This document shows, piece after piece, positions 583 to 18,415 of a stretch of 20,000 nucleotides of DNA. The notes beneath the pieces are model-generated. The model was given only the letters and a program-made list of their open reading frames with translations. It made no database searches and had not been told where the DNA came from. Position numbers and translations under genes: made by a program. Position 1 is the stretch's first letter; each line of letters opens with the position of its first letter. The stretch lies in the IMG/VR virus record IMGVR_UViG_3300047094_001965; one strand, given 5' to 3'. This DNA is from an uncultured virus (IMG/VR IMGVR_UViG_3300047094_001965) (taxonomy: Duplodnaviria > Heunggongvirae > Uroviricota > Caudoviricetes).

Positions 583-599
583 AGTTACATAGTGTATCC
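583..599 (-). promoter_or_regulatory. copy 1 of the 17-bp motif (sense GGATACACTATGTAACT), overlapping TAACTTTC, a 1-mismatch Bacteroidota -7 element
   Basis: Matches RGWTAC-N5-GTAWCY. It is 18/20 identical to the sequence at 15233-15252 before the final base is counted (GGATACACTATGTAACTTT vs GGTTACACTATGTATCTTT differ at two positions). Confidence 0.7.
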
Positions 600-612
600 A
601 TGAAATTCTATT

Positions 613-2331
613 TTATTGGCCCCTCAATACTTTTTCAAACTCGTCTATCGGTAATTCCCTTTTTTCTCCGTTGATGGTGAACTTCACCTTTGTCTTACCA
701 CCCCACCAAGAAGAACTTGGTTGCACATCCCTGATCTGACCAGATGTTCCGTCTGGCAATGTGATCTCGTCATCCAGCACAGCGGATAACTTCTTCGGAT
801 CCTTTGTCTTTACAAACTCATCCACTTCTGCCGCCGCCATGTTTTTATACTTGCGGCTATTGGCTTCTGTGATCACTTCACGATCTTCAGAATTATACCA
901 CCTGTAGTTACCGGATCCGTCTTTGTGCTTTGCCATAATGCTGGGCACTTTACCAATAGGAACATTGTTGGCTTCCGAAATATTGGTCAACCACTTATCA
1001 AAGTTCTCTACCTTTTTAGGCTTGCTATTTCTCTCATCGGTATAGTAAATCTCTCCATCCTTAGGATTATACAATATGCGGCTGTAGGACTCCGGCATAG
1101 CCTTACCGTCCTGCATCTTCTTAGTCTTACCGCTATACACTGTCGCGCCTGGCAGGCGAGATGTAATGTCTACCATTCCACCCTTTGCCGTCTCACCTTG
1201 GATAAATGTGGGGTCACCGTTCTTCGCCCGGATAAGGGCATCAATAACATTCGGCTTTTCTTCTTTCTGGCCACCCCTGCCAGACATGATGGCTGCAGCC
1301 CCGAATAAGTCTGCACGTTCCCTGAGCGCACTACGATCTTCAGCGTCCTTGACCTTAAATGCATCGCCTTGGTTAAAGTTCCGATTCAGTTCTTCAAAGG
1401 CGAAGCGGCGCCGGAGTAGGTCGCCTTCCTCAGAATTTAGATCCACATCCTTAAATACGGGATTCCTTTTGATCATCTTATCCAGATATCCTTTGGTGCC
1501 ACGGTTGGCATTGATCAGGCTTTCATACATACCCTTATCCAATACCTCCATCCTGGTGCCGTCTGGAAACTCCACAGCATTGGCCTTTACACCAATGCCC
1601 ACGACCTTGCCAGACTCGTCCTTTAAGGGTTGCTGGTATGGCCGTAGATTGGCAGACCATGAACTGGTGCGTTTAATGCCACCCTTATCGGTAGTGGTTT
1701 CTTCACCTGCAGCTTCAGCCTTTTGGTTATTCACCCAGTCCTCTATACCCATATTTCCACGTACCCATAAATCAGGACGTTCCTGCATGAATTCACCAGT
1801 GTAGTCCCGGTTAAGATCGATCTGGTCAGGATCCTTCAACTTGTACTGGCCAGATTCGGGATCGAGATCAAAAAATGCTTTATTGAGGGCCCCGAGCTTT
1901 ACAGCCCGGGCGTCTACAGATTTATCGGCTTCCAGTCCTTTCGTGGCTTCTTCGATACCAGCGCGGACGGTTTTTGCATTAACGCTATACCTATTCAACT
2001 TCTCTACATCGTTCTGGATCATGTACCCCATCTCAGACATCCTGATATTGGGATTCTTCATGATCATGCCGGTATAGTTCTGCTTCATCTGCCTGAGACT
2101 GTCATTGATAACCCTGTCTGTAGGTGTGCCGGTAGCAAAGTTTTTCTCATCGAATTCCTTCCCGAGATATCCGACAAGGGCATCCTGGCGATCCGCTTCC
2201 TCGCGCATCCGCTGGGCTTCCTTTGCCTTCCTATTCTCGGACATGGCAAGGACATTGGCGGCCATATTCATTACGCCGTCCTGACTGGGTAAAATTACTG
2301 CGTGCTCTGCACCGTATGGTCCGCCTGCCAT
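613..2331 (-). CDS. putative internal virion / ejection (cargo) protein, 572 aa
   Basis: Long ORF with a charged, helical-looking N-terminus and no Cys. It lies downstream of the muzzle-like and pilot-like genes, where podoviruses keep ejection proteins. Confidence 0.6.
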   Translation of the reverse strand: MAGGPYGAEHAVILPSQDGVMNMAANVLAMSENRKAKEAQRMREEADRQDALVGYLGKEFDEKNFATGTPTDRVINDSLRQMKQNYTGMIMKNPNIRMSEMGYMIQNDVEKLNRYSVNAKTVRAGIEEATKGLEADKSVDARAVKLGALNKAFFDLDPESGQYKLKDPDQIDLNRDYTGEFMQERPDLWVRGNMGIEDWVNNQKAEAAGEETTTDKGGIKRTSSWSANLRPYQQPLKDESGKVVGIGVKANAVEFPDGTRMEVLDKGMYESLINANRGTKGYLDKMIKRNPVFKDVDLNSEEGDLLRRRFAFEELNRNFNQGDAFKVKDAEDRSALRERADLFGAAAIMSGRGGQKEEKPNVIDALIRAKNGDPTFIQGETAKGGMVDITSRLPGATVYSGKTKKMQDGKAMPESYSRILYNPKDGEIYYTDERNSKPKKVENFDKWLTNISEANNVPIGKVPSIMAKHKDGSGNYRWYNSEDREVITEANSRKYKNMAAAEVDEFVKTKDPKKLSAVLDDEITLPDGTSGQIRDVQPSSSWWGGKTKVKFTINGEKRELPIDEFEKVLRGQ

Positions 2332-2342
2332 TTATGTATAGT

Positions 2343-3113
2343 TTAGTTTCCCAAAATTGTTTTCCACCTGGCTTCCGTATTCATAGGGTTCAGGAAAGAA
2401 GGGGTGAAAGACCTTCCCGCCATAAAACCCGGCGCGATACCGCCACCGCCTACTACTGGGTTCATACCCTGCGCCGTAGCCATAGGTGTGTTGGATACAG
2501 ATGCCATCTGGCCGCCTTTACCCATCAACCCGCCAAACCTCGGCATTTTCAACCCTTGGCCTACACCAGACCCCAGCATCATCAATCCGCCCTGAGCAAG
2601 ATCACTGAACGCACCAGCCCTGTTTTGATAGCTGGCATTCATGAGGGCATTCTTCGCCTGTACGGCTTCGGTATATTTTCTCAGTTTGTCGCCAAACACT
2701 TTGTCTGTCTCGCCAATCATAGTGCCTTCCGCGCCAGTAAGAACCTGGTTCATCTGAATCTTGTTCTGCTGCTCCATCTGTGCGAGGTTTGCAGCGGACT
2801 GGTTGGCCTGTGAGTTACCAACTGCAGCCATAGCAAGGGCATCGGCTCCGGAACCCGCATTGCGCTCTACAGAAGCCTGAAAATTGGCTTGGTTGGCCTG
2901 TATGTTCTTCTCCATAGCAGTAGCGCCAGCCATACGGCCGCCATACATCTGCTGGGCACGGGCTAACCCGTCTTTGGCTTGCTGTGATACCTGGTATTCG
3001 GGATCATTAGGGTTGATATTATTGGCCAGCTTCTTTTGCTTGCGTGCGGTTACCAACTTGCTGATCAAGTTGACACCCATCCCTATCCCTGATAATATTC
3101 CGCCAATTGCCAT
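2343..3113 (-). CDS. putative ejection / DNA pilot-type protein, 256 aa
   Basis: Gly-rich hydrophobic N-terminus (MAIGGILSGIGMGVNLISKLV) followed by a basic patch, an Ala/Gln/Asn-rich helical middle and a Gly-rich tail. Lies directly after the tail stabilisation-like gene. Confidence 0.65.
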   Translation of the reverse strand: MAIGGILSGIGMGVNLISKLVTARKQKKLANNINPNDPEYQVSQQAKDGLARAQQMYGGRMAGATAMEKNIQANQANFQASVERNAGSGADALAMAAVGNSQANQSAANLAQMEQQNKIQMNQVLTGAEGTMIGETDKVFGDKLRKYTEAVQAKNALMNASYQNRAGAFSDLAQGGLMMLGSGVGQGLKMPRFGGLMGKGGQMASVSNTPMATAQGMNPVVGGGGIAPGFMAGRSFTPSFLNPMNTEARWKTILGN

Positions 3114-3130
3114 AGTTACAATTTGTATCC
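3114..3130 (-). promoter_or_regulatory. copy 2 of the 17-bp motif (sense GGATACAAATTGTAACT), immediately followed by the ATG of 2343..3113
   Basis: Direct match to the consensus. Spans the stop codon of the 1119-aa gene. Confidence 0.6.
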
Positions 3131-6100
3131 TTGTGAATCAATATATGTCAAGTTCACGAACTTAATTTGGATATTGTTTTGTGCCGTATTTACGTCCCAC
3201 TCCAACAACATCCTGATTGCCGGACCTCTCATGTTATCTCCATAGTGCAACCTCTCCACAACAGTCTTATTCATCAACGTAGGCGTCAGACGATCCCTTA
3301 AAATACCTGCATACCAAATGTTTTCCCAGCTGCGAAACTCGTCATTAACGAGATCAGAAGATTGAACATTTGGACTCTCTGTCCGCAAGTGCACATAATC
3401 TGGTACTAAGTTACATTCAATAGCGAGTGATTCCCATATTTTAACCAGACTTTGTTCCTGATTGCCAATAATTGCTATTCTGGATTTCTGCGGAACACCG
3501 TAAAAATTATTATAACCAGGGCCAGCATTGTGCTGGTGAATCTTTCCATCCTTGAAGGAATAGAGATCGTTACCGATTACAACATAGTATTCCGGAAGGA
3601 AGCCCATAGGTGCATGCCAGCTATCCATTGGGTATTTATACACCAGCGTCTTAGCCTGGCCATCCCAGATGTCGTAAGGATAATCCAATCCAACAACGTC
3701 CGTCATGCCGCGCGGGTTGTCCGCCAGCAATGTGGGCACCGTAACCAACACCTCTTTGTGGTGAGGATCTTGGCTGGCTACAATAAAGGGCCTCGATCCC
3801 AACGCTTCAATCTGGGCTTTGGTCATAGAGTTATACTGCCTGCAGAACTGCCTGAAGAACCTGGTGAGCTTGTTATCGCTTACGGGTGTGACGCCGTTCA
3901 GGGAATAGAATACATACTTTTCCTTATTCATATCCCACCAGAAAACCAGCTCAGAGTCGGTCATACATACAGATTCCGGATTGACGGAACCATATCCGCC
4001 CTTTAGCGGGTTGATGGTACCGATCACGCCATCCGCCTTGGAAAAGAACGCCGTAGCGCCATTGCTTTGGTTGATCTGGGCTTCGCCAATGTATATGCTC
4101 GATACATCGTATTTACATATAGCCAGCATGACAGAACCTTCATCCTGCGTCTTGCTGGTCAACTTCAGTTTTGTAATTGGTCCGCTTTCTATTGGGAGAT
4201 CCTGATAATCCAGTACATCGAAATTTGAAAGACCGTTGACTTGGGTGCCTTGCTGGAACACGTTGCTGAAACAGATATTCCTATCCCTCAATTCCTGACC
4301 AAGGCCCGTCCTGGCGATAGCCCTGCCGGCATCCGTATTCCAGATAGTCCACAACTTATCATTGGGGCTCATCGCCTCTACAAGGTATTGGCTGGCGGAC
4401 TTGGTGCGTTCGATCAGCCACACATCGCCTTCGATATCACCGGACATCGTGGAGTACCTACGGCTGGGTAATCCGGGATCGAGAACCGGATACCTATTGC
4501 CCACTTCAAAAAACAACTCATTCAGGTTTTCTTTGAAGGGGGTATATACTTCTACCAATGCACTGGTGCCTGAATTAAGGGTGCCCAAATTAGACAGATT
4601 TGCAATGATCCAGTCACCTGACTGATCGATCACCACAAGCTCGTAAACATTCGTTCCTATGTACACCTTCACAAAGTCGCCTTCGGAAAACACATAGCCA
4701 AGGCCCGGAGGCTTCAGTCCGGCAAGGTTGATACCTATGCCGAGATGTGTTGCCGCCCATGCAGAACTTGTAAATATATAGTTGCCTGATCCGTCTTTGG
4801 TGGCATACCCCATGTTCTCGGCCCTGATCTGGAAAAAAGACCGGGTGCGGAGACATTTTGTTGTCAGGATGCTATAGCTTGTCGCCCATTCGGGAATCTC
4901 AGACAATGCATCAATGTTGCTGACGGACCACGTAATAAACCGGGTATAAGCCACGGTCCCGTACTGCCTGTCGGGTGTGATCAGTTTCAATGCCTCTTTG
5001 GTAACGGCGCCGCCAAGCCTTCCGGCGAAATCGTAGAACGCAATAGCTACCCGCTTACCAGCCCCAGACTTGTGGACTTTCTTTCCCACCAGACTGCTTA
5101 CCGCGGGAGGGCTATTAACAATAGAAGTGCCACCCGCAAATGAAAACTCAATCAGGGTAGCATATGGAGGACCGGCAATGCCGTTATATGAAAATACATT
5201 CGTGGCGCCAGCGCCTTCAAACACAAGGTCGCCAAAGTTGACCGAGACGGGAAACACGGGCGATACTGGATCGATGTACCCGCTGGTCCAAGAATAATAC
5301 CCACTGGTTGGAATGCCTGTGATGTCAATAACATACTTTGTTGCTACGCCTAAACCCGTTGTCCACTTCAGCCTCCACCACCGGCCCGTAAGGACCCCAC
5401 CTTCATCCTGCACTGGATAAGCCACCAGGCTTGTTTCTTCTGACGCCGTGAGGCCGCGCACGTTGTTACCCAGCCAAAGCCTATTCTTAGCGACTTCCTG
5501 CGTGCGGGAATATATGGGAATAGAATGAAAGAGTTCCGCAGCATCGGCATCGCTTATTGCTATACCGTTCTGATCGTTATAAAACATAAAGGTCAAAGGA
5601 GTGCCGGCGTTATGCGCCGTGATTGCAGCCGCGTCTCCGGCCTTTCCTTTATCCCATGTCTTGATGATAAAATATTTATTGCTTTCCAGATCCTTAACCA
5701 CAAGTTCAATCTTAAGCACGTCATTGTTCACAGCCTCATCTACTGGTATCGTGAGCAGGTATGCATTACCAAGATCGGAAGGCAGCAAGAATCCAGCCGT
5801 CCTACTGTATTCACTTAAAACAGACAATTCATAGTCTCTATAAACATACCTGTATGCAAACTGAAAAGCGGAGTTCCTGATAAAGTTACCAGGGTTGCTG
5901 CCTCCGGACAAGACAAAAGTGATAGGATACGCTGGTGGCTTCCTTATAAGACTGACCTCCGCCTGTTTCAAAGGGGATGTGTAAGGAAGCACCGAGGTAA
6001 CGTATCCAGGATGGTTTAATTTGATACCGGCTTCTATATTTAACCTGCGGGGCTGATTGATATGATCATTCACCCAGTACAGGATATTATCTACCACATT

Positions 6101-6475
6101 GGCAGAATGAATGAGCCAGTCCTTTGAAAAGTTTAGGCCGCCCGTAATCTGGCTATTTAGTAGCACAGTATAAACGGTATCGGTTCCCTTGTCGTAACAG
6201 TATATTCCGTGGTTGCCGTTGCTATTCCAGTTAAAGAAGATAGCCCGGTTCTTGGCTTCGTCAGCCACGGCACCGATACAATCATTTGTCCCTGCCGGAA
6301 GGCTATGAGTGATTGCCCTGGTAGATAGTACGTTTTCCAAGCCACCCACAGCGCCTTTATCGGTTGTGGCAAACCGGAAGTTCTTCCCGTTGACATATGC
6401 ATTAGCGCCAACAAGAAAGTCTTGGGTATCGCCATCCAGGCCTTCGTTAAAATATTTCTTTTCTTCTTTCTGCAT
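3116..6475 (-). CDS. tail muzzle / stabilisation protein (crAss-like muzzle, P22 gp10-like role), 1119 aa
   Basis: N-terminus GLDGD..Y.NGKNFR..G.LEN, FQFAYRYVYRDYELS, RLWLGN and a beta-rich C-terminal part (WWDMNK, LYSFKDGKIHQHN, KIWESLAIE) resemble this family from recall. Follows a ring-like protein and precedes pilot-like genes. Confidence 0.7.
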   Translation of the reverse strand: MQKEEKKYFNEGLDGDTQDFLVGANAYVNGKNFRFATTDKGAVGGLENVLSTRAITHSLPAGTNDCIGAVADEAKNRAIFFNWNSNGNHGIYCYDKGTDTVYTVLLNSQITGGLNFSKDWLIHSANVVDNILYWVNDHINQPRRLNIEAGIKLNHPGYVTSVLPYTSPLKQAEVSLIRKPPAYPITFVLSGGSNPGNFIRNSAFQFAYRYVYRDYELSVLSEYSRTAGFLLPSDLGNAYLLTIPVDEAVNNDVLKIELVVKDLESNKYFIIKTWDKGKAGDAAAITAHNAGTPLTFMFYNDQNGIAISDADAAELFHSIPIYSRTQEVAKNRLWLGNNVRGLTASEETSLVAYPVQDEGGVLTGRWWRLKWTTGLGVATKYVIDITGIPTSGYYSWTSGYIDPVSPVFPVSVNFGDLVFEGAGATNVFSYNGIAGPPYATLIEFSFAGGTSIVNSPPAVSSLVGKKVHKSGAGKRVAIAFYDFAGRLGGAVTKEALKLITPDRQYGTVAYTRFITWSVSNIDALSEIPEWATSYSILTTKCLRTRSFFQIRAENMGYATKDGSGNYIFTSSAWAATHLGIGINLAGLKPPGLGYVFSEGDFVKVYIGTNVYELVVIDQSGDWIIANLSNLGTLNSGTSALVEVYTPFKENLNELFFEVGNRYPVLDPGLPSRRYSTMSGDIEGDVWLIERTKSASQYLVEAMSPNDKLWTIWNTDAGRAIARTGLGQELRDRNICFSNVFQQGTQVNGLSNFDVLDYQDLPIESGPITKLKLTSKTQDEGSVMLAICKYDVSSIYIGEAQINQSNGATAFFSKADGVIGTINPLKGGYGSVNPESVCMTDSELVFWWDMNKEKYVFYSLNGVTPVSDNKLTRFFRQFCRQYNSMTKAQIEALGSRPFIVASQDPHHKEVLVTVPTLLADNPRGMTDVVGLDYPYDIWDGQAKTLVYKYPMDSWHAPMGFLPEYYVVIGNDLYSFKDGKIHQHNAGPGYNNFYGVPQKSRIAIIGNQEQSLVKIWESLAIECNLVPDYVHLRTESPNVQSSDLVNDEFRSWENIWYAGILRDRLTPTLMNKTVVERLHYGDNMRGPAIRMLLEWDVNTAQNNIQIKFVNLTYIDSQGYKL

Positions 6476-7225: not shown

Positions 7226-9589
7226 TTAATCTATTAAAGTTACCCGGAACCTTGCTTTTCTTATAGTTGGTCCAACAATAATCGGAAACACCTGCAATGT
7301 ACTGGGTACATAGCCCAAAACAATAAAATCCTGCCTTTCGACCGTGATATTGAACACCTGAAGCGTACTTGCCACCGATGGCAACTGCAAGTTCACTTGC
7401 CCAGGCAATACCACCGGAGATCGTACCTGCATCGTTGAAGGCACAAAAGAAAGATTAACGTACTGCAATCCCCCCTCTGATGTAACTATTGGAGCACGCA
7501 CCTGTAAAGTGCTGGCTACCGAAGGCAGGGCAATAGTCGCGGCGCCAGGAAGCAGTGTTATAGCATTCACAGTCAATGTGCTGCCCACTGCTGGCAGCGA
7601 TACGGTTACGGATCCACGAGTGACAGTAAGAGCCCTTACAACCAATGTACTTGCAACTGCCGGAAGCTGTACGACCGAAGGTGGAACAACTATAGCGGGA
7701 GCATTAACAACCAATGTGCTGGCAACTGCTGGCAGTTGCACATTCAAGGATACTGCTGGCGCAAAAACCTGCATTGTAGATGCTACGGTATTGCACTCAA
7801 TATTCTGTTCCTGCGTTCCGGAATACGCATACTCATATATCCTTAACTCGTCATTGTTCTGATCTATAAATGCAGTTCGGTTTGCTGACAAGCCGGCCAG
7901 AGCAGGATAAAATACGTTTGAAAGCGATGCATTTATGCCCTGATCAACGAAGTTGGTTCCCACTAAATCCAGAACCTTCAGGGTATCGTCTCCATCGTTA
8001 ATATAGGCTATCCGTGAAGGCGTAAGCCTGGCTAATGCCGTAGTATTAAAGGAAAAATCGTTCTGAGCAAACAAGGTAAATGTTGACCCATCAAAATCAT
8101 ACACACTTAACCTGCCATCATCTCCATCCCAAACAACAAATCTACTGGGTGTTAACGCTACCATATCGGGCGCAAATCCACCAACATTGGCCAGCGGCGT
8201 TCCAATGGCAACCCATGTATTCCCAATCCAATCATACGCCCTAAGAGCCTTGTTGTTCTGATCTACCATAACAACGCGGCCAGAGCCAAGCCTTGCTAAT
8301 GCCGGAGAACTGATAGCCGGAGAAAGGCTGTTTAGATCAAGCTCTGACCCCATAAGGGTTATACTTGATCCATCAAACTTATATCTTCTCAGAACCCTTA
8401 GTGATCCATCAAGGTAAGCAAACTCAGAACTGTTTAATCCTGCAAGGTGACCACTGTTCGATCCTGGTACGATAAGAGATGCACCTTCAACAAAATTTGT
8501 TCCGTCATAAATCAACACACTCATCCTATCGCTGGCCTCGTCATGCAGAACAACCGTATTGGAATTTAATGCCGCAAGTGACGGCCTATTGTTGGGACCC
8601 GGAATAATGGCTGCCTTAACAAGTGCCCACGCATTATCCCTGATAACAGATGGAGTAAACACCTGCATAGTGCTGGCTACCGAAGGCAGGGCAATGACAA
8701 CGGTACCTCCGCTAACTGTAGGAGCAAACACCTGCATGGTGCTCGGTACCTTGGTCAGCGTAATGCCGTCCGACCTGCTATACTGATCATGCCACTGGTA
8801 AACATCTCTGGTGCCGTCAACAAGAAGGTAGCCGACAAAAGGCCAGTAGTACAGATCATCCCAGCAATTGTGATCATACCCCGGCATGGGGAAGAATATA
8901 GACTCGGGAGAAATTCCTATATTTTTGAGCCCCTGAGCCCAATCCCTTGATTTTTCCCAAGGCGTAAAAGGGTTGGAGTCGTTTAGGCCGTGAACAAACA
9001 ATGTAGGCATATTTGCAGCCTTGGCATTGTCAGCGCCCGGTTGATAAAATACAGAAGGAGTACATAGCATCGACATAGATGCCACATGAGTCAGCGTTCC
9101 TCCATTTAACCAGTTTGTTGCTCCATCCGATCCTAAACTTAATGCAGTTATATGTAACCGGGACTTATCAAAATCGTAGTTCGCTCTGACGTAATTTACT
9201 ATACTTTGAAGCCGCGATGCATTTAGGCTGCTACTGTTATATTGGGGAACAATAACAAGCATATCATAAGGAAACTGATCCGCAGTTCCCATCAAATTGT
9301 TTATATGCTTAGGGATTCCATTATTAAGTAACAAATTAAGTTGACCGTTTCCATCCCCCAAATCACCTATCCCATGCAAAGAAATAAGGGCGGAAGATTT
9401 TCCGGCAACATAAAAAGGAGGCTTGTATTCATAGAAGCCTCCAATATCAACACCCATAGACACGCCTGGCCTGGCCGTCCAAGTTGCCTGGCCGACTACA
9501 GGTGCATTGACAACCATCGTACTTGCAACTGCCGGAAGTTGGACCAAGGCATCTGTGGCACCTCTATTTTGCAGTAGCGTTAAAAGCAT
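7226..9589 (-). CDS. tail fibre/appendage protein: repeat scaffold with an inserted alpha/beta-hydrolase (esterase) and a six-repeat beta-propeller, 787 aa
   Basis: About 11 copies of an LPxVxSTx(Q/V)VxxPxV repeat. Hydrolase motifs LHGIG, ALSLG, HGLND and DHNCW. Six repeats of about 44 aa (PxLAxLxxxRxxxxDxxxxxLxxYxxxG). Confidence 0.75.
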   Translation of the reverse strand: MLLTLLQNRGATDALVQLPAVASTMVVNAPVVGQATWTARPGVSMGVDIGGFYEYKPPFYVAGKSSALISLHGIGDLGDGNGQLNLLLNNGIPKHINNLMGTADQFPYDMLVIVPQYNSSSLNASRLQSIVNYVRANYDFDKSRLHITALSLGSDGATNWLNGGTLTHVASMSMLCTPSVFYQPGADNAKAANMPTLFVHGLNDSNPFTPWEKSRDWAQGLKNIGISPESIFFPMPGYDHNCWDDLYYWPFVGYLLVDGTRDVYQWHDQYSRSDGITLTKVPSTMQVFAPTVSGGTVVIALPSVASTMQVFTPSVIRDNAWALVKAAIIPGPNNRPSLAALNSNTVVLHDEASDRMSVLIYDGTNFVEGASLIVPGSNSGHLAGLNSSEFAYLDGSLRVLRRYKFDGSSITLMGSELDLNSLSPAISSPALARLGSGRVVMVDQNNKALRAYDWIGNTWVAIGTPLANVGGFAPDMVALTPSRFVVWDGDDGRLSVYDFDGSTFTLFAQNDFSFNTTALARLTPSRIAYINDGDDTLKVLDLVGTNFVDQGINASLSNVFYPALAGLSANRTAFIDQNNDELRIYEYAYSGTQEQNIECNTVASTMQVFAPAVSLNVQLPAVASTLVVNAPAIVVPPSVVQLPAVASTLVVRALTVTRGSVTVSLPAVGSTLTVNAITLLPGAATIALPSVASTLQVRAPIVTSEGGLQYVNLSFVPSTMQVRSPVVLPGQVNLQLPSVASTLQVFNITVERQDFIVLGYVPSTLQVFPIIVGPTIRKARFRVTLID
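7508..7534. repeat. 27-bp perfect direct repeat, copy A1 (agtgctggctaccgaaggcagggcaat)
   Basis: Identical to 8669-8695; offset 1161 bp, which is in frame. Confidence 0.9.
7647..7666. repeat. 20-bp perfect direct repeat, copy B1 (gtacttgcaactgccggaag)
   Basis: Identical to 9519-9538; offset 1872 bp, which is in frame. Confidence 0.9.
8669..8695. repeat. 27-bp perfect direct repeat, copy A2
   Basis: Identical to 7508-7534; lies between the esterase and propeller coding regions. Confidence 0.9.
9519..9538. repeat. 20-bp perfect direct repeat, copy B2
   Basis: Identical to 7647-7666; lies just before the esterase coding region. Confidence 0.9.
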
Positions 9590-11191: not shown

Positions 11192-11201
11192 ACTATTTTT
11201 T

Positions 11202-11707: not shown

Positions 11708-12100
11708 TTAAACTTGAAAGTGACCACCTGCGTTAACCTGTACGTTGATATTGCCACCGTTTGGTGTTACGGGCAACCCTGTGGCTGTGTCATACCTCAT
11801 GATCAGTCTGCTTGTCGAAGCTGTGCCGGTATCAATAAACAAAAATACCTGCTCAATGCTGGCTCCGGAAACCGTAGGCCAAACGAAGTCATCACAATCA
11901 AACAGGCCATTTACGAATGTTTTTCCTGTCAGGTTCGCGGTGGTTGCTACCCTTGCGCCAACTGGAATGTCAGAAAGAAATTCATGAGCACTATTAAAAG
12001 TATAAAGTGCCTGATCAACAGCAACAGCTTTGATGTTTGTTGACTCCAAAAGGTTACGGATCATTTGTTCTTTGAACTTGTCCATTACAATATTTGCCAT
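11708..12100 (-). CDS. small minor tail / fibre-associated protein, 130 aa
   Basis: Recognisable phage small tail protein pattern (HEFLSDI...LTGKT...FDCDD..W...DTG.ASTSRLI..YD.ATGLPVTPNGGNI), from recall. Confidence 0.6.
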   Translation of the reverse strand: MANIVMDKFKEQMIRNLLESTNIKAVAVDQALYTFNSAHEFLSDIPVGARVATTANLTGKTFVNGLFDCDDFVWPTVSGASIEQVFLFIDTGTASTSRLIMRYDTATGLPVTPNGGNINVQVNAGGHFQV

Positions 12101-12110
12101 CTTGCTTTAT

Positions 12111-12587
12111 TTAAGATTTAAGTAATTGAAGTGATAAACTGATATTCTTTGCCCCGGTATTGGATACAACCAGAATCTTAATCAAGTCGCCTTTAGTTAC
12201 ATTTTGTAACCATGTAGACAATGCGATATCCTGCGCTTTCACGCCAGTCGTTATGGTTGGCTTCTCCGTACCTGCAATAGATGTGAATGTTGGGAAATCG
12301 ATGAAGTTTGATTTTAAGACATCGATCACGATTGTACACGTGTTGCCATCGGCTTCGAGCAACGTCCACCCGGATATTTTGGCATCATAAGGCATCTCTA
12401 CAATTGTCTCTGTGTCTGCTGCAATACTCCCATTTAGTTCCCCTTGGATCGATACCGATATAGCCCCATAGTTCACAGGCGTTTCGCCGTTGACAAAGAT
12501 GTCAATAACATCATCAACACCAGCGTCTACGACAATCACCTCTGCAGGTTGATCCAAAACCTCTATGTATAGCAGTTCTCCACTCAT
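12111..12587 (-). CDS. short tail fibre-like protein with a C-terminal beta-sandwich domain, 158 aa
   Basis: Acidic Val/Ile-rich N-terminus plus MPYDAKISGWTLL...IVIDV.K...KPT....K..D..LSTW...V..GD, a common phage fibre C-terminal pattern. Confidence 0.55.
   Translation of the reverse strand: MSGELLYIEVLDQPAEVIVVDAGVDDVIDIFVNGETPVNYGAISVSIQGELNGSIAADTETIVEMPYDAKISGWTLLEADGNTCTIVIDVLKSNFIDFPTFTSIAGTEKPTITTGVKAQDIALSTWLQNVTKGDLIKILVVSNTGAKNISLSLQLLKS
12195..12211 (-). promoter_or_regulatory. copy 3 of the 17-bp motif (sense GGTTACAAAATGTAACT), inside the 3' end of the 158-aa gene and 94 nt upstream of the 130-aa gene
   Basis: Exact GTTAC-N5-GTAAC core, in the same orientation relative to transcription as the other copies. 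Confidence 0.55.
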
Positions 12588-12949
12588 CGTTCCGCGTTTT
12601 TATCAATTACCTCGAAAGGACCGTGCAGCCTGGTGTAAGTCTTGCCTGCGGCCGTAGTTCTATACAACCCGTACTTATACACCCCCACAGGTATATTCAT
12701 TTGCAGGTCTGTTTTTTCCAGATAAAGGGTGTTGTTGAGGATTGTGGCGCCATTACCCATAGAAAAGGAAAGAACAGTTGTGCCGGCATTATCCTTAACC
12801 TCCATCAAAAAAGTATCTGTTGCAATAGGAATAATAGCCCCTGTAGATTTATCCTTGAATTGGATAGACATAGGGAAACTGTTAAGCCTCCGGCAGACAA
12901 TACTTGCCAGCTGCGATGCATCAAGATCTATGATTACGTTCTTCCCCAT
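12584..12949 (-). CDS. Ig-like fibre adaptor protein (BppU N-terminal-like), 121 aa
   Basis: All-beta pattern ending GVYKYGLY....GKTYTRLHGPFEV, typical of fibre-attachment Ig-like domains. Coupled to both neighbours. Confidence 0.55.
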   Translation of the reverse strand: MGKNVIIDLDASQLASIVCRRLNSFPMSIQFKDKSTGAIIPIATDTFLMEVKDNAGTTVLSFSMGNGATILNNTLYLEKTDLQMNIPVGVYKYGLYRTTAAGKTYTRLHGPFEVIDKNAER

Positions 12950-13584
12950 TATTTAGAAGTTTGTGAATCGACAATTTTATTCGCGTCTACCCTCGGCAAG
13001 AACATCTGCACCAGTGCTTCAATAGCCTCTGCCTCCATATCTTCGCTGATCGGAAGCTGGGCCCAGTCATCGTACTTGTCAATGTCCATTACTGCCAGGA
13101 TAATCAACAAGTCTTCATCCGACACATCCTTTGAAAAGAATAGCTCCCTCCCCACCGGCCAGTATCCTGCCTGACCCAGCAATGTGCTCATACCCACCAG
13201 TTTCTTCACCACACCGTATTGACCCGCCTGCATAGGTATATAGCCGCAATCGGGGTCGCTTAACGGACCTACATGGAAGATGCCCATGTTGCGCGGCAGG
13301 TTGATAGGCATAGCAGGAAGTGTTACCCGGCATACCTTGCCATTATTCTCGGCTTTGGCCCTGATCTTTACCGCACCCTCGCCATACCTGGCCAGCATCG
13401 TTCCGGCAGGAATAGTCTCACCTTGGCCCATGGTGATATCGAAATGAGATAACTGCAGGCGCTTGGCCAGCATTTGCCCGAGGGCAACAATGATCTCCCG
13501 GATATCCACACGAGATCCCGCGGAAGGGTCGCCCCCGCTGATCCTTCGCAATACTTGTTCCGCTATCCTGCGTTTAGTGCTCAT
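12949..13584 (-). CDS. putative tail ring / adaptor protein, 211 aa
   Basis: Helical N-terminus, VTLPAMPINLPRNMGIFHV beta region and C-terminal LPISEDMEAEAIE helix, matching a ring-protein layout. ATGA-coupled to the upstream gene. Confidence 0.55.
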   Translation of the reverse strand: MSTKRRIAEQVLRRISGGDPSAGSRVDIREIIVALGQMLAKRLQLSHFDITMGQGETIPAGTMLARYGEGAVKIRAKAENNGKVCRVTLPAMPINLPRNMGIFHVGPLSDPDCGYIPMQAGQYGVVKKLVGMSTLLGQAGYWPVGRELFFSKDVSDEDLLIILAVMDIDKYDDWAQLPISEDMEAEAIEALVQMFLPRVDANKIVDSQTSK

Positions 13585-14255
13585 CTAACCTCCATTTGTT
13601 TTTGTTGGGCCACTTGGAATACGGCATCGGCAGAAAGCGAGACGCCGAGATATTGCAAGGCCCTGGTTATAACCTGCGGGATATAGGAAACATTCCATTC
13701 CAGATCGGTGCTACGGGCTGGGGAATACTTTAGGTTCCTTCCATCTTCCAGATATCCCCACTTCGGCTTTGTTGGAAGAACCAGGTAAAACACCTTGCCG
13801 GCCTTCGGCGCCGCTGGGTAAAACTGAAGTTTTTTATTTGTCTCGAAGATTACCACCGGATCAGCCTCCGTAGGCATAACAATCTGGCTTCGTAGTCTGT
13901 GAGCCAGTTCATCGGGGTTAACCACGGGAACCGGACTATAAAGGGTAACACCGTTTGCTACATTCTGGGTCATGACAGTAAGTAGCTGCTCAGACTGCGG
14001 TATAGTCATCAACCCAGATGGCGTATTTGCGTTATTGAATTCTACAGTCCTGAGAAACGGGTTCAGCGCTTCGGCTACATATGTGCCTTGGGCATACACC
14101 GGCATCTGAGCGCCTTGCTGCGGCCGTAGACTGTTGAAATAGTCTATCTGGGCTAAATCCAAAGCCTGGTCTATTTCCTCAGGGGTAGACTTGCCCGTCT
14201 TTTCTTGGACGAGCAATTGCCGGATAATACTATGAACCTCATTGATATCTGTCAT
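13581..14255 (-). CDS. putative tail ring / tubular protein, 224 aa (start MTDINEV; the ORF track extends it to 14276)
   Basis: TPEEIDQALDLAQIDYF N-terminal motif and YL..PTKPKWGY...Y.P..STDLEW...I.RALQYLGVSL C-terminal motif, as recalled for Bacteroidota phage ring proteins. The ATG at 14255 sits 1 nt after the upstream stop. Confidence 0.6.
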   Translation of the reverse strand: MTDINEVHSIIRQLLVQEKTGKSTPEEIDQALDLAQIDYFNSLRPQQGAQMPVYAQGTYVAEALNPFLRTVEFNNANTPSGLMTIPQSEQLLTVMTQNVANGVTLYSPVPVVNPDELAHRLRSQIVMPTEADPVVIFETNKKLQFYPAAPKAGKVFYLVLPTKPKWGYLEDGRNLKYSPARSTDLEWNVSYIPQVITRALQYLGVSLSADAVFQVAQQKQMEVR

Positions 14256-14256
14256 T

Positions 14257-15156
14257 TCACACCAGTTTTCCCTCAATATATTTGTGCTGGATTACCAGCC
14301 ATAGTTGACCCAAAATCTCGTACTGCTCCACGTATTTCTCATCGTACACCACAAACTCATCTTTCTGTAGGCTCAGGTTCCTGTCTCCCTTTCTCGGTTT
14401 CCCCACGTGCCTGGCTATACCCATCCTCCGGCTTTTCTGCTTCTGCATATACTCCGGGATGATGATACCGCCTTCGGTCATATCTCCGAGATCGATTTCA
14501 AAAGGCTCCACAAACACATACCCACGGGCAGGGTGGATAACCGGCACCTTCTTGCCGTCTTGTTCTTCCTGCCTGATCACGCCCATAACAAGGCTGTAGT
14601 CCACCCTCCAATACATCACACCCTCATGGATCATCAAGTTCTTAAACGACACCTCCCCGTCTCCGAGGAATTTAAACTGCATCATGAACTTCTCCGCGTC
14701 TGCTCGTGTTCCGTTTACGCCGCCAAGAATGTTCCCTTCTCTATCCTGCAAGCTGGCTGCGTACCAGTTTTTTCCCAATGTGAAGATGCGCAGCAACTCC
14801 CCCCTGTGATTCTTAAACTCTTTTTCCTTGTCCTCAGTCTGGGGATCGCCATTCAGCCAAAATCCATCCTCACTATCCACATGGTCCTTATCCTCTACGA
14901 CCATGTACTTAAAAATTACCTCATCGCCTGGGCGGACATCCTCTACATCCAGACCCCTCCGTTCATAGTTCACGATATCTTGGGTCAGCTTCACCGGGGT
15001 GGATACCACGTGGCCGGTAATTGTAGCGTTCCATTCGGGCTTAAAACTTGAATCCATGAACAGCTTTACGCCTGTTCCGGCTTTGATTTCATCGACATAC
15101 ATCTTGTCTATGAGTACGAATAAATGGTTGTTTGGTGCGGTTGGTACTGTTGTCAT
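14257..15156 (-). CDS. tandem double GroES (Cpn10)-like co-chaperonin with a large insertion in domain 1, 299 aa
   Basis: Domain 2: IHPARGYVFVEP...TEGGIIIP...GIARHVG...LQKDEFVVY...EILGQLWLVIQHKYIEG. Domain 1: PNNHLFV...GHVVSTP...VRPGDEVIF [about 85-aa insert] HEGVMYWRVDYSLVMGVI. Confidence 0.75.
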   Translation of the reverse strand: MTTVPTAPNNHLFVLIDKMYVDEIKAGTGVKLFMDSSFKPEWNATITGHVVSTPVKLTQDIVNYERRGLDVEDVRPGDEVIFKYMVVEDKDHVDSEDGFWLNGDPQTEDKEKEFKNHRGELLRIFTLGKNWYAASLQDREGNILGGVNGTRADAEKFMMQFKFLGDGEVSFKNLMIHEGVMYWRVDYSLVMGVIRQEEQDGKKVPVIHPARGYVFVEPFEIDLGDMTEGGIIIPEYMQKQKSRRMGIARHVGKPRKGDRNLSLQKDEFVVYDEKYVEQYEILGQLWLVIQHKYIEGKLV

Positions 15157-15163
15157 GGTGCCA

Positions 15164-15180
15164 AGTTACATTCAGTAACC
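15164..15180 (-). promoter_or_regulatory. copy 4 of the 17-bp motif (sense GGTTACTGAATGTAACT), overlapping TAACTTGG (1-mismatch -7 element), 7 nt before the first ATG of the structural operon
   Basis: Exact GTTAC-N5-GTAAC core in the divergent intergenic region. Confidence 0.7.
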
Positions 15181-15220
15181 TTGTTTTGACATTTTTTTCC
15201 CAATTCATGCTAAAAAACAA

Positions 15221-15252
15221 TTTATTCACTGGGGTTACACTATGTATCTTTG
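15221..15252 (+). promoter_or_regulatory. Bacteroidota housekeeping-type promoter (-33-like TTTA at 15221-15224; -7 TATCTTTG at 15245-15252) overlapped by copy 5 of the motif (15233-15249, GGTTACACTATGTATCT)
   Basis: Exact TAnnTTTG match with a TTTG-like element 20 nt upstream, at the head of the plus-strand arm. Confidence 0.7.
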
Positions 15253-15282
15253 GAAACAAGTTAGGGTCAGTAAACAGAATGC

Positions 15283-15312
15283 GGGCCGGGGTTTCTACCC
15301 CAGCCTCTTTTT
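15283..15312 (+). terminator. GC-rich hairpin followed by a T-tract (intrinsic terminator / attenuator-like)
   Basis: GGGCCGGGGT-TTCT-ACCCCAGCCT forms a 10-bp stem with one mismatch, followed by CTTTTT. Confidence 0.55.
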
Positions 15313-15326
15313 AAAAACCATGAAGT

Positions 15327-15704
15327 ATGAAGGAGCTTGAAAACGGACATCCTGAATTCGCCAAAGAAAAGACAGAGATCCACGCTGTCGCTCAGGTCAA
15401 CACTGAGAAGAAACACGAAGGCAGGATGACGATAAAGAGAGGGCAAAAAGTGTGGGAGATCGATCCTAAAACCCGAGAGTGCACGGAGGTAATTGCAAAA
15501 AATGCAAGTTACGAATCCAGAGAGAGAAGCATAGGCATAATTGTTCGCCAAGCCGAAGCCAAACAAGGCATGGTTTACATAGTAGCAATCAACAAAGCCA
15601 ATGCCCTGAGGAAGATGGATAAGATGTTCAGCGATTACCGGCAAGCATTATTAAACCACATAAAACAAACCACAACCGATGACATTCAACCTGGTGAGGC
15701 ATGA
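15327..15704 (+). CDS. hypothetical protein, 125 aa
   Basis: First ORF of the plus-strand arm; no family recognised. Confidence 0.75.
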   Translation: MKELENGHPEFAKEKTEIHAVAQVNTEKKHEGRMTIKRGQKVWEIDPKTRECTEVIAKNASYESRERSIGIIVRQAEAKQGMVYIVAINKANALRKMDKMFSDYRQALLNHIKQTTTDDIQPGEA

Positions 15705-16002
15705 GCCAACTCAGATGTACTACTGGAAAGAAAGCACGTATGACAGACTTGTTGACGCTGAATTCATATCCTTCCAAGGCGATGTTGACGGATTTGAACT
15801 AAAAGACGGAAAGACCTACGTGACAACGATGCCGGGCGCCTGCTTTGTCTACAGGAGACAGGGCACCTACAGACCCTTAGAGATTATTACCCGAGAATCC
15901 CACCTTATCGAAATACTTGGAGACGATGTAATCACCATTGGCATCAATGTCGTGATCAACACCCTCAATCCAAACCCTATCGAAGTTTCTAAAATTCTTT
16001 AA
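15679..16002 (+). CDS. hypothetical protein, 107 aa
   Basis: Co-directional ORF with an AC-rich leader, overlapping the previous gene by 26 nt; start is uncertain. Confidence 0.65.
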   Translation: MTFNLVRHEPTQMYYWKESTYDRLVDAEFISFQGDVDGFELKDGKTYVTTMPGACFVYRRQGTYRPLEIITRESHLIEILGDDVITIGINVVINTLNPNPIEVSKIL

Positions 16003-16013
16003 GAACCGGAGTT

Positions 16014-16646
16014 ATGAAACCAATTCTTTTTTCAACACCAATGGTGCAGGCAATATTGGCCGGAAGAAAAACGCAGACGAGGCGGCTGGTAAAATTTCCA
16101 GATGATTTTGATGGAAGAGAAGTTTATAAAAATGGTCAGTTTGGAGTTAAATACAGCCGTGAAGATGGGACCCTTTACCGACATTATCCAAAGTACCAAC
16201 CCGGCGACATCCTGTATGTGCGGGAGACGTGGCAAGTTGTAAGATATGCGCCGCCCGGATCTTCACAGCTTCAGGATTTGTATGTTTTTAAGGCCGATAC
16301 CACCGATGTTGGCGAGTACGAGATAACCAAATGGAAGCCATCCCTATTCATGCCAAAAGAAGCCGCCCGGATATTCCTTCAGGTTACAGATGTAAGGGCT
16401 GAACGGTTGCAGGATATCACCGAGGAAGATGCTATTGCGGAGGGGGTTGAATCATTTCTTGAACACAATGGAAGGCTTTACAGAGACTATTCAATCGATC
16501 CCGAAGATAACGAGGGTCACAACTACTTCAGAAATCAAATTCATTCTTTTAAATCACTCTGGGACAGTATCAACAAAAAGACCAGCCCATGGGAAAAGAA
16601 CGATTGGGTTTGGGTTTATACATTCAAAACAATACAGAAGCCATGA
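16014..16646 (+). CDS. ASCH/PUA-like domain phage protein, 210 aa
   Basis: MKPILFSTPMVQAILAGRKTQTRR, PGDILYVRETW, WKPSLFMPKEAARIFLQVTDVRAERLQDITEEDAIAEG and F..LWDSIN..W..N.WVWV.F are hallmark blocks of this widespread phage family. Confidence 0.85.
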   Translation: MKPILFSTPMVQAILAGRKTQTRRLVKFPDDFDGREVYKNGQFGVKYSREDGTLYRHYPKYQPGDILYVRETWQVVRYAPPGSSQLQDLYVFKADTTDVGEYEITKWKPSLFMPKEAARIFLQVTDVRAERLQDITEEDAIAEGVESFLEHNGRLYRDYSIDPEDNEGHNYFRNQIHSFKSLWDSINKKTSPWEKNDWVWVYTFKTIQKP

Positions 16647-17011
16647 TGATCGACACACACCTTAACACATGGGAAGCAAATAATCTAATGCACCAGTCAT
16701 TGGAAGATGACAAAGAATTACAATTGCTGGCGTCTCTCGCTAATGCAAAATTTGCAAGTTTGGGTAAATCAGTGAGGATCCTCCTAAAACCTAAAGGGCT
16801 GCAATACGCTACTGGGTATTTATGGTGGCGCAAAGTACGCAATGTAACCAGGTATGAGCTTATTCACTTGTACACCTTTAAAGACAAGCAGCCCATGTTC
16901 AAATCTTACAACTGGCCTTCTATTCCCGGCGATGAAAACAAAGGTTCGTTTCGCCCGTATGGAACACCTGGTCAAGTAAAAACCTATCTCGAAGCAATAA
17001 CTAACATCTAA
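16643..17011 (+). CDS. hypothetical protein, about 122 aa (start MMIDTH; the ORF track extends it to 16589)
   Basis: ATGA overlap with the upstream stop at 16643-16646; its stop lies 1 nt before the GroES start. Confidence 0.7.
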   Translation: MMIDTHLNTWEANNLMHQSLEDDKELQLLASLANAKFASLGKSVRILLKPKGLQYATGYLWWRKVRNVTRYELIHLYTFKDKQPMFKSYNWPSIPGDENKGSFRPYGTPGQVKTYLEAITNI

Positions 17012-17012
17012 T

Positions 17013-17282
17013 ATGAATTATGTACCTATCGGCGGCAGGGTCTGCATCCTGCCAGAGAAACGAAAAGAAAAGACAGAAGGCGGCCTGATCATCCCCGACA
17101 AGGCCCAAAAGGACGAAGGCCGCGGGATTATCCAGTCCGTATCTGCAGACATCGAAAACCCGCAGATCAAGACAGGGGATAAAGTGATCTACAACCTTGG
17201 CCGGGTATTCGCACTGGAACAGGAAGGCGTACTGTACCACGTGGTTAACTACGAAGAAGTGTATGCCGTTTTACCACAATAA
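17013..17282 (+). CDS. groES: single-domain GroES (Cpn10) co-chaperonin, 89 aa
   Basis: PIGGRVCI...EKTEGGLIIPDKAQK...G.I..V...IKTGDKVIY...EGVLYHVVNYEEVYAVL matches the Cpn10 pattern and length. Confidence 0.85.
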   Translation: MNYVPIGGRVCILPEKRKEKTEGGLIIPDKAQKDEGRGIIQSVSADIENPQIKTGDKVIYNLGRVFALEQEGVLYHVVNYEEVYAVLPQ

Positions 17283-17293
17283 AAACAACAACG

Positions 17294-17893
17294 ATGGCAA
17301 AGGTTACCATTAGCGAGAAATACTTTTTGGAACTGGTTAACAAAAAGTCCAAAGAAATAGAAAGTCTAAGGGCATCGGAAGAAAGGGCTTGGAACTTTCT
17401 CCACGAATCCAATGATGAAAAAAAGGAGTTTTGGCAAGAGCTTCAAACCCTCAGAGCAGTTCAAAAGGAATACGATGAATTGAAATCAAAGCCAACCCTT
17501 TTCTCCAACGTAAGCGTTGAGGAAATTATTAGCAACTATCTGGAAGAAAAGTTTGATGGATCTGTTAAGATTGACGGAATAAGACACCCTATCCTGAAGT
17601 TTCAGAACGTGTCATCGGTAAATTCCGAAGGCGGACGTGATAGTTTTAGGATGGCATTGGTTGTTTTCCCTGGTGATTGGCCGGACAATTACAATGCGCT
17701 TACTGCTGATACAGAGCCAAACAATGCGCCAAAATTTACTGAAGATGAATACAAAGCAGGCCACTTTGTAAATGAGGAAGTTTATTTTGGCAAGACACCC
17801 ACCCAAGACACAGACGGAGCAGACGACATCCCTTCCACTGTAGGTGGCCGCCCTGCTACGGATATCCAGCCTTACGAAAACCACGACTGGTAA
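17294..17893 (+). CDS. hypothetical protein with N-terminal coiled coil and acidic C-terminal tail, 199 aa
   Basis: Composition of the ORF; TAATG-coupled to the HD gene. Confidence 0.7.
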   Translation: MAKVTISEKYFLELVNKKSKEIESLRASEERAWNFLHESNDEKKEFWQELQTLRAVQKEYDELKSKPTLFSNVSVEEIISNYLEEKFDGSVKIDGIRHPILKFQNVSSVNSEGGRDSFRMALVVFPGDWPDNYNALTADTEPNNAPKFTEDEYKAGHFVNEEVYFGKTPTQDTDGADDIPSTVGGRPATDIQPYENHDW

Positions 17894-18399
17894 TGGAAAA
17901 CCTATATACACCCAACAGCATCCGCACCTACTCAGGGCTGTACTTCAATTACCTTAATCCCACCACAGAGATGGTGAAGATCGAGGACATTGCGCACGCC
18001 CTGAGCCGTATCCCCCGTTTCCTTGGCCATACAGAACACCCAGTACCCGTTGCCGTACACTGCTTGGCCATGGCCGCCACCCTTCATGAGGTGGGATCTC
18101 CATACGCCTTGGAGGCCTTGCTACATGACGCCGCCGAAGCATACCTATGCGACATTCCTAAGCCTTTGAAAACGCTATTGCCGGACTACCAGAAGTTGGA
18201 GGAAATCGTTAACCGCGTCATCGCCACCAAATTCAAACTTATGTACCCATTCCGGAAATCGGTTCGAGACCAGGACAAGGAAATGCTGGAACTTGAATGG
18301 GAGATCAACGTACTGGGTAAAAAGCCGGCGATGATGAATTTGACACCTGGTGAATACAAGGCTAAATTTTTGGAGTATTACGAACTTTTGAAACGGTAG
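17893..18399 (+). CDS. HD-domain phosphohydrolase (YfbR/YfdR-like 5'-deoxynucleotidase family), 168 aa
   Basis: IEDIAHALSRIPRFLGH, VAVHC, ALLHDAAEAYLCDIPKPLK and a downstream D (DQDKEML). Confidence 0.85.
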   Translation: MENLYTPNSIRTYSGLYFNYLNPTTEMVKIEDIAHALSRIPRFLGHTEHPVPVAVHCLAMAATLHEVGSPYALEALLHDAAEAYLCDIPKPLKTLLPDYQKLEEIVNRVIATKFKLMYPFRKSVRDQDKEMLELEWEINVLGKKPAMMNLTPGEYKAKFLEYYELLKR

Positions 18400-18415
18400 T
18401 TACTATTTGTAACTA
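18397..18415 (+). promoter_or_regulatory. copy 6 of the motif: perfect inverted repeat TAGTTAC-TATTT-GTAACTA in the intergenic gap after the HD gene
   Basis: 7-bp arms with a 5-nt spacer; overlaps the TAG stop and lies about 43 nt upstream of the next ATG. Confidence 0.7.

Follow-up and report, generated by a model that had tools for sequence, protein, structure and literature searches.

A recurring promoter-associated palindrome in an uncultured, distantly crAss-like phage: candidate operators of a dimeric regulator

Introduction

What reads a short palindrome that recurs in front of genes on both arms of a phage genome fragment? The question is raised by a stretch of 20,000 nucleotides (nt) from an uncultured virus (IMG/VR record IMGVR_UViG_3300047094_001965), referred to here as the window, in which a 17-bp element, RGWTAC-N5-GTAWCY, occurs six times. 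The palindrome set is a real regulon. Its core recurs in two related phages, and the copies are candidate operators of a dimeric DNA-binding regulator.

In crAss-like phages, to which the source of the window is distantly related, gene timing, persistence and lysogeny are poorly understood, and for one of them, phi14:2, the excerpted source describes only host-type middle promoters (bioRxiv 10.1101/2020.03.07.982082). Multi-copy phage operators as such are already known; the present set adds an example from a phage group that has been little studied. Two of its features are of some interest, namely a half-site fused to the Bacteroidota -7 promoter element and a resemblance to the operators of SOS-type repressors, which points to a testable connection between host DNA damage and the control of phage genes. 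An operator that recurs at syntenic promoters of three divergent phages also offers a bait of 15-17 bp for finding the regulator, and its copies list the transcription units under control.

The palindrome and its placement

The pattern RGWTACNNNNNGTAWCY (RGWTAC-N5-GTAWCY) has six matches in the window against 0.01 expected from 200 dinucleotide-preserving shuffles; none of the shuffles held six or more copies, and the highest count in any one of them was one. An initial annotation of the window had listed these six copies, and a pattern search reproduced all of their coordinates and sequences. Four are on the minus strand in the sense direction. Site 1 (583-599; sense GGATACACTATGTAACT) ends 8 nt before an in-frame ATG at 574, which was used as the start of the next gene in the model of 27 open reading frames (ORFs) on which placement was judged; the gap depends on this choice, and with ATG 601 instead the motif would fall in codons 1-7. 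Site 2 (3114-3130; sense GGATACAAATTGTAACT) overlaps the TAA stop (3116-3118) of the muzzle gene, described further below, and abuts the ATG of gene 2343-3113. Site 3 (12195-12211; sense GGTTACAAAATGTAACT) lies wholly within ORF 12111-12587, 94 nt upstream of ATG 12100, and has the weakest promoter context among the six. Site 4 (15164-15180; sense GGTTACTGAATGTAACT) shares the divergent control region between the two arms (15157-15326) with the plus-strand site 5 (15233-15249; GGTTACACTATGTATCT), the two being 69 bp apart from start to start. Site 6 (18398-18414, plus strand; AGTTACTATTTGTAACT) begins within the TAG stop of gene 17893-18399, 43 nt upstream of ATG 18458.

Only 445 of the 20,000 nt (2.2%) are non-coding under the 27-ORF model, and this small share takes in 15-17 of the 17 nt of four of the six copies (binomial P for at least four of six mostly non-coding, ~3e-6). 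With site 2 at a gene junction and site 3 inside an ORF, the bias towards junctions and intergenic gaps seen in the initial annotation is borne out, as is its range of 0-94 nt to a start codon: counting from the motif's last letter to the first sense-strand ATG after it, the gaps at sites 1-6 are 8, 0, 94, 7, 77 and 43 nt. The flip of the asymmetry at the strand switch is likewise real, since on the plus strand the outer letters read AG...CC for the copies among minus-strand genes and GG...CT at site 5; at site 6 the outer position is symmetric. The flanks of the six copies have nothing in common outside the 17-mer. These observations support the palindrome as a non-random, promoter-associated DNA element on both arms.

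A relaxed search adds a candidate degenerate seventh copy at 295-311 (minus strand; GGTTACGGATTTTAACC, two mismatches), 16 nt upstream of ATG 278; between the two lies a -7-like element on the same strand, TACATTTA, followed by 5 nt to the ATG. A degenerate half copy at 12162-12178 (sense AGATTCTGGTTGTATCC, two mismatches) is found 17 nt downstream of site 3 in the same ORF.

Half-sites and symmetry

Is the palindrome a binding site, or does it act by folding? The twelve half-sites of the window are GTTACA (seven), GATACA (three) and GTTACT (two), and three of the six copies combine an A variant with a T variant. In the relatives introduced in the next section, the half-sites are GATACA throughout in G004 (26/26), and GATACA (12), GGTACA (eight) and two others in G005, where four of 11 copies are mixed. 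There is no covariation between the arms: conservation applies to each half-site separately, and the 3-nt centre is variable and A/T-rich. Half-sites that vary independently and arms that mismatch point to a dimeric DNA-binding protein rather than to an RNA or DNA hairpin, and the layout fits a dimer that would contact two successive major grooves.

The inverted symmetry, the 7-bp arms and the 3-nt loop could nonetheless be those of an RNA stem-loop (for processing, stability or translational control) or of an N4-type phage promoter formed by DNA hairpin extrusion, and the outer G...T would pair on the sense strand only. Yet the stems are poor. Positions 3 and 15 are A/A, A/A, T/A, T/A, T/T and T/A at sites 1-6, and the sense-strand RNA energies are -0.1, -0.1, -4.4, -4.6, -0.5 and -4.6 kcal/mol, so that the three copies with an A/A or T/T clash fold at close to zero. 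No compensatory changes are seen, half-sites assort independently in the window and in G005, no Rfam family matches the palindrome, and most copies in the relatives lie upstream of the predicted transcription start, hence outside that transcript. N4-type virion-polymerase promoters have a stable stem of 5-7 bp with a 3-nt loop and stand upstream of early genes only, whereas half of the stems here are mismatched and the copies precede structural genes. The stem-loop alternative of the initial annotation is therefore not supported, and a hairpin of either kind is the least probable of the explanations considered here. A restriction-modification target was rejected as well, as such sites are avoided in genomes and not concentrated at promoters.

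Recurrence in related phages

How far does the element extend beyond the window? An alignment-based scan of IMG/VR with the muzzle protein returned 80 loci of 32-43% identity. Three of them have a single match to the exact 17-mer pattern and the other 77 have none, but a count of short palindromes picked out one locus (L004) with eight copies of GATACA-N3-TGTATC. The whole contig of this locus (G004; 47,419 bp) holds 13 exact copies, against none for a reversed-pattern control. A scan for the promoter signature of G004 then yielded one more contig, G005 (74,050 bp, with direct terminal repeats), in which GNTACA-N3-TGTANC occurs in nine exact and two one-mismatch copies, 10 of the 11 between called ORFs. 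Elsewhere among the relatives, the core G.TACA...TGTA.C has one match in L041 and none in the remaining 78 of the 80 IMG/VR loci or in any of six loci from an alignment scan of GTDB. These six are phage-sized or short contigs binned into metagenome-assembled genomes of discordant taxa, and they gave no host information.

The window has seven to eight proteins in common with G004 and G005 (tblastn), mostly structural, in the same order and at 25-45% identity, and the palindromes keep their places. All three phages have a copy in front of the gene that follows the muzzle gene (window site 2, G004 9909, G005 38812). All three also have two or more copies inside the divergent region that separates the first structural gene from the GroES-side arm, at 15164 and 15233 in the window, at 1865 and 1923 in the syntenic region of G004 (1839-1960), and at 44900, 44948 and 45916 in that of G005 (44.9-45.9 kb). 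Because G004 and G005 are themselves fairly closely related (54-77% identity in 14 proteins, 38% in the muzzle), the comparison spans two lineages, not three. A quick tree of muzzle proteins does not place the three motif-bearing phages in one clade, but this tells little on how the motif spread, because the muzzle gene is mosaic. A repeat search in L008, the muzzle-nearest relative of G004, found no equivalent cassette. Muzzle homologues at 60-63% identity to the window protein exist (P0002-P0004); scans for their DNA in IMG/VR (with a single protein), JGI metagenomes and GTDB (with P0003) gave no match.

The muzzle gene itself (L219, 6320-9694 in G004; 38848-42252 in G005) stands at 38% identity beside structural neighbours at 54-77%, and by its sequence it appears to have been exchanged or to evolve fast. 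G005, a muzzle-bearing crAss-like genome (L231-L234), also carries ERF, MT-A70 and a block of glycosyltransferases. In G004, receiver-like cREC_REC and DUF551 genes adjoin palindrome copies (2537-2902 and 29713-29964, both minus) on the reverse strand between structural blocks; these small accessory genes resemble morons with their own promoter. Their counterpart in the window is the DUF551-like gene 18458-18799, which adjoins site 6.

Other palindromes were met in these scans. The exact sequence GGTTACANNNTGTAACT occurs in at least 127 IMG/VR stretches, mostly as single chance matches. A multi-copy contig among the matches listed (G002/L216, 7.7 kb) was rejected as an unrelated phage, which uses Shine-Dalgarno sites and has a longer palindrome in the opposite orientation relative to its genes: four copies of CTCAGTTACA-N3-TGTAACYGAG at gene junctions (2990, 3474, 4218 and 5558), with the TTACA-N3-TGTAA core in common with the window motif. 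Another relative (L028 and L030) has a different palindrome, GTCAAAC-N-GTTTGAC, in three copies (5323-5337, 5632-5646 and 13421-13435), one of them right after the muzzle stop and another abutting TAAATTTG, with an ATG 5 nt farther on. Possibly, then, each lineage carries its own operator at the same promoter places. In a distant relative, a 33-bp tandem array at a contig end (L058, 2-141) contains five copies of TGTAGCTACA.

Promoter context

If the palindrome is an operator, where does it sit relative to a promoter? The Bacteroidota sigma-A core promoter consists of TTTG at -33 and TAnnTTTG at -7. In Flavobacterium (F.) johnsoniae, the -7 element TAnnTTTG is described at -12 to -5, with the transcription start 4-5 nt beyond it and a weak -33 element (PMC6847099, excerpt). 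For the sites of the three phages, the offset was measured between the palindrome centre and the first base of exact TAnnTTTG boxes. At an offset of +16 (12 cases, seven in G004 and five in G005, plus a single case at +17), the palindrome ends 8 nt upstream of the box and thus covers about -35 to -21. At +4, the box overlaps the right arm; this register is found at window site 5, at G004 19316 and in one doubtful G005 match. None of the six window copies has a box at +16, by this measurement or by eye.

The +16 cassettes precede structural gene blocks and have the strong box TAAYTTTG. They also share CCAAATWTTTCTCCCC and a T-run upstream, and in six cases a second palindrome lies 47-58 bp farther upstream. 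They lack a TTG where the phi14:2 middle promoters have one, the palindrome filling that position. Two registers, together with the second copy upstream in six cassettes, suggest a separate protein site rather than a sigma contact.

In the window, the right arm runs directly into a -7-like sequence (TAWCT+TTG). Site 5 has a perfect box, TATCTTTG (15245-15252, plus strand), fused to its right arm. One mismatch to the TTG is present at site 1 (TAACTTTC; 580-587, minus strand), site 2 (TAACTATG) and site 4 (TAACTTGG; 15161-15168, minus strand), two at site 6 (TAACTATA) and three at site 3 (TAACTAAA). No TTG was seen by eye at N19-21 upstream of the window boxes. At site 1 the box is followed by 5 nt and the ATG at 574, and at site 4 by 4 nt and the ATG at 15156, a leaderless geometry; this spacing agrees with that of box and start in F. 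johnsoniae (PMC6847099, excerpt) and with the phi14:2 promoter P070. The same geometry is found at G004 19316 (TATCTTTG-GGTT-ATG), at P070 (TATATTTG-TATAA-ATG) and in several relatives downstream of the muzzle gene.

The apparent orientation of the palindrome with transcription is most simply explained by this fusion of the right half-site with a -7-like box. The initial annotation had drawn on outer G...U pairing for its stem-loop alternative; the trailing constant T at position 17 is probably better explained as T-8 of the overlapping box.

Mode of action

From the enrichment, placement, dyad symmetry, half-site independence, syntenic recurrence and -7 registers of the copies, we infer that the 17-mers are operators of one dimeric helix-turn-helix (HTH)-type regulator acting as a repressor. 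Binding is predicted, and this interpretation has, in our judgement, slightly better than even prospects. The half-site would be GNTACA, present as an inverted pair separated by 3 nt, and the operators would lie on or beside phage promoters of the host sigma-A type (TAnnTTTG). In the window, where the right half-site would supply the first bases of the -7-like box, a dimer on the site would span about -24 to -8 and obstruct RNA polymerase, which makes repression the most likely outcome. One protein would thereby repress up to six or seven transcription units on both arms, as a form of temporal or immunity-type control.

Several observations weigh against this interpretation. The fusion to the -7 box is perfect at just one of the six window sites and was recognized post hoc, and the window has no excess of TAnnTTTG (12 against 15.6 expected). 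Site 2 cannot serve as a promoter of its gene in that register, because the start predicted there falls within a conserved N-terminus, alignable with homologues; the box at site 3 is poor, and this site is within an ORF; and the G at position 1 in five of six copies is without explanation. No DNA-binding family was found on the window ORFs by Pfam, PHROGs, NCBIfam or ESM Atlas look-ups, no match to Peptidase_S24 in the 87 of 100 G005 ORFs scanned, and no relatives of either HTH protein of G005 in the 47 kb of G004 or in the window. There was no RNA among the sequencing runs that contain the window sequence. Finally, most copies in the relatives lie at about -35 to -21 of promoters without a TTG at -33, so that an activator fits these as well as a repressor does.

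The last point carries the main rival explanation, in which the same dimeric site acts positively, the palindrome replacing the missing -33 element and recruiting host RNA polymerase to middle and late promoters. Twelve G004 and G005 copies end 8 nt upstream of strong TAAYTTTG boxes in front of structural gene blocks, without the TTG of the phi14:2 middle promoters (TTG-N20-TAnnTTTG), and the T4 MotA box at -30 and the Mu Mor and C dyads provide positive-acting parallels. On the other hand, no window copy has a box at the +16 distance, and three window copies lie 0-8 nt from an ATG, so close that a protein sitting there would overlie the -7 box or the start. Activators do not usually bind with their centre near -16. 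Activation is considered unlikely, if worth serious attention; a single protein could possibly both repress and activate.

Could the 17-mer instead be a promoter of the phage's own, recognized directly by a polymerase or sigma factor that the phage encodes or modifies? Its orientation follows transcription, copies head both arms, and crAss-like phages carry a virion RNA polymerase (bioRxiv 10.1101/2020.03.07.982082, excerpt). But an asymmetric promoter contact gives no reason to expect a perfect dyad (all 26 half-sites of G004 are identical) or two registers relative to host-type -7 boxes. In phi14:2, moreover, the early transcripts made by the virion polymerase share no upstream motif, and the host polymerase transcribes the middle and late genes (same excerpt). 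The window copies precede structural genes. Direct reading by a polymerase is quite improbable. The initial annotation had left the choice between a dimeric-regulator site and such a promoter; the dimeric site, with its symmetric, independently varying half-sites and its syntenic recurrence in two relatives, is the best reading, and the promoter is rated lower.

A further proposal, which needs no dedicated regulator, is that the palindromes are remnants or boundaries of mobile promoter cassettes, or recombination sites for module shuffling. In G004 and G005 the palindrome is part of a repeat of 65-110 bp (CCAAATWTTTCTCCCC - T-run - palindrome - N8 - TAAYTTTG) that often lies beside small reverse-strand accessory genes, and one cassette adjoins the mosaic muzzle gene (38% identity, its neighbours 54-77%). 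The window flanks, however, share nothing beyond the 17-mer, which argues for selection on the palindrome itself, and the arms are conserved where the spacers vary, as for a protein site. This proposal is very improbable.

The regulator

Which protein would bind these operators? The repressor favoured here would be encoded outside the window, either as a phage CI/Xre-type protein elsewhere in the genome or as a host CI-type/S24 'non-canonical LexA' repressor. The initial annotation had noted that no obvious regulator gene lies in the window, and the database look-ups listed above agree with it. None of the 27 window ORFs matched Peptidase_S24 or an HTH family (the window being an incomplete genome), and neither had a match in the 47 of 56 ORFs scanned in G004, likewise an incomplete genome. 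G005 has two tyrosine-integrase genes and two Xre-type HTH_3 genes (4675-5910, 58902-59957, 60614-60931 and 61797-61997), which suggests that it may be a temperate member of the group, and a palindrome pair begins at the stop codon of its 66-amino-acid (aa) HTH gene. The window and the complete genome G005 have only structural genes and GroES in common, so a homologous phage-encoded regulator cannot lie in the window. The only non-structural protein common to G004 and G005 looks, by eye, like a PD-(D/E)XK-type endonuclease.

The closest known kind of site is the operator of Bacteroidota CI-type/S24 repressors, of which the window copies may be further members. These 'non-canonical LexA' proteins, with a CI-type HTH and derived from phage repressors, are reported to bind CTAA-N5-TTAG or GGA-N5-TCC, sites with AT-rich spacers that are found in bacterial chromosomes in front of the repressor gene itself and of SOS genes, and diverged paralogues bind other dyad-N5-dyad palindromes, among them TTAC-AAATT-GTAA, confirmed by electrophoretic mobility shift assay (PMC8565304, excerpt). 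The SOS genes in question, such as umuD, dinB/umuC and recA, are induced by DNA damage. All six window copies can be written as WTAC-N5-GTAW, with the TTAC variant in nine of 12 half-sites. They thus have the same 4-bp dyad, 5-nt AT-rich spacer and 4-bp dyad as the sites in that excerpt, and the T-variant of the motif includes every letter of the published TTAC-AAATT-GTAA. The reported shifts of specificity between paralogues also have a parallel in the shift from GWTAC to GATAC to GRTAC between the three phages. The differences are that the window copies lie at promoters of structural and accessory genes of a phage, that no S24 gene was found in the window or among the 47 G004 and 87 G005 ORFs scanned, and that conservation exceeds the 4-bp dyad, with a G at the outer and A/T at the inner position.

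The motif had been called unrecognized in the initial annotation, and this needs amending: its TTAC-N5-GTAA core and 4-N5-4 layout match a published CI-type/S24 site (PMC8565304, excerpt), a putative relative. The same site may bear on the reservation, made in that annotation, that the motif might prove to be an already described host regulator site. The literature covered, to which the phi14:2 promoter file and Table S10 of PMC8565304 did not belong, holds no description of the palindrome in crAss-like or Flavobacteriia phages, and no passage of the crAss001 paper bears on it.

A bolder proposal is that environmental crAss-like phages are silenced genome-wide by a single CI-type/S24 repressor, whether phage-borne or a host SOS-type paralogue, through operators fused to the -7 element of nearly every promoter. 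Although distinctly unlikely, this would amount to a stoperator-like immunity network that ties a temperate or persistent crAss-like lifestyle to DNA damage, and the same protein could serve in the relatives as a substitute for the -33 element at late promoters, creating a two-way temporal switch.

Comparison with other phage systems

Stoperators are described in cluster A mycobacteriophages (PMC9283540, excerpt). They are asymmetric sites bound by the monomeric immunity repressor of a temperate phage. They resemble the present set in having many copies genome-wide, mostly in short intergenic gaps and oriented with transcription, and the spread here is similar, with six copies per 20 kb on both arms of the window, 13 in G004 and 11 in G005. 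The present sites differ in being dyad-symmetric; no immunity repressor was identified here, and integrases were seen in G005 only.

Another parallel is provided by the lambdoid CI/Cro operators, dyads of 15-17 bp that are bound by HTH dimers, often occur in pairs and overlap core promoter elements in a divergent control region. The copies described here are scattered through both arms as well, and their promoters are of the Bacteroidota -7 type. The BlaI/CopY operators, of the form TACA-TGTA, differ from the window motif in spacing.

The phi14:2 middle promoters are likewise multi-block cassettes upstream of middle and late genes and are used by the host polymerase (bioRxiv 10.1101/2020.03.07.982082, excerpt), and at P070 the -7 box is 5 nt from the ATG. 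However, P070, P075 and P092 have the form TTG-N20-TAnnTTTG with no palindrome, the middle-promoter type also having an A-rich block upstream, whereas the promoters of the window, G004 and G005 have no TTG and a dyad instead.

The phage and its neighbouring features

The source of the window is an uncultured freshwater podophage of Bacteroidota, distantly crAss-like, as follows from its muzzle families, its cultured relatives, the content of its arms and the origin of its reads. The 1119-aa muzzle protein (3116-6475, minus strand) matches the crAss muzzle families PF25731 and PF25729 and also PHROG virion proteins. Its closest cultured relatives (tblastn, ~25% identity) are in Flavobacterium 'elemo' phages and the Cellulophaga phages phi38:1 and phi40:1. 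On the minus arm are structural genes, and the plus arm encodes GroES, an ASCH-like protein, a protein resembling deoxynucleoside monophosphate (dNMP) phosphatases, and small ORFs; for the gene downstream of site 6 (18458-18799), DUF551 was the sole lead from ESM Atlas look-ups. The metagenome runs that contain window DNA are from lakes and freshwater. INPHARED held no near-identical phages, and a distant blastn search with 12000-19000 gave just two short matches, both unrelated.

Two Cpn10/GroES-like domains are encoded in the window, one in a free 89-aa GroES (17013-17282, plus strand) and one in the C-terminal part of a 299-aa protein (14257-15156, minus strand), the first gene of the structural arm. 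Both GroES-domain genes flank the divergent region in G004 and G005 as well.

Where contigs of four lake or freshwater runs align to the window, none of the 40 differences listed, out of 1,223, falls inside a palindrome site. The region 9300-11700, with a Kelch-repeat protein (9764-11191) and its neighbours, shows many joints, indels, loose ends and depth jumps in other lake-run contigs; it looks like a hypervariable module, probably involved in receptor binding.

The divergent control region contains a terminator-like hairpin at 15283-15312 (plus strand), consisting of GGGGTTTCTACCCC within GGGCCGGGG...CCCCAGCCTC followed by TTTTT. It sits between the perfect -7 box (15245-15252) and the first ATG of the plus arm (15327), and a transcript starting from that box would reach it after ~30-50 nt. 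The hairpin may serve as an attenuator or terminate a small RNA.

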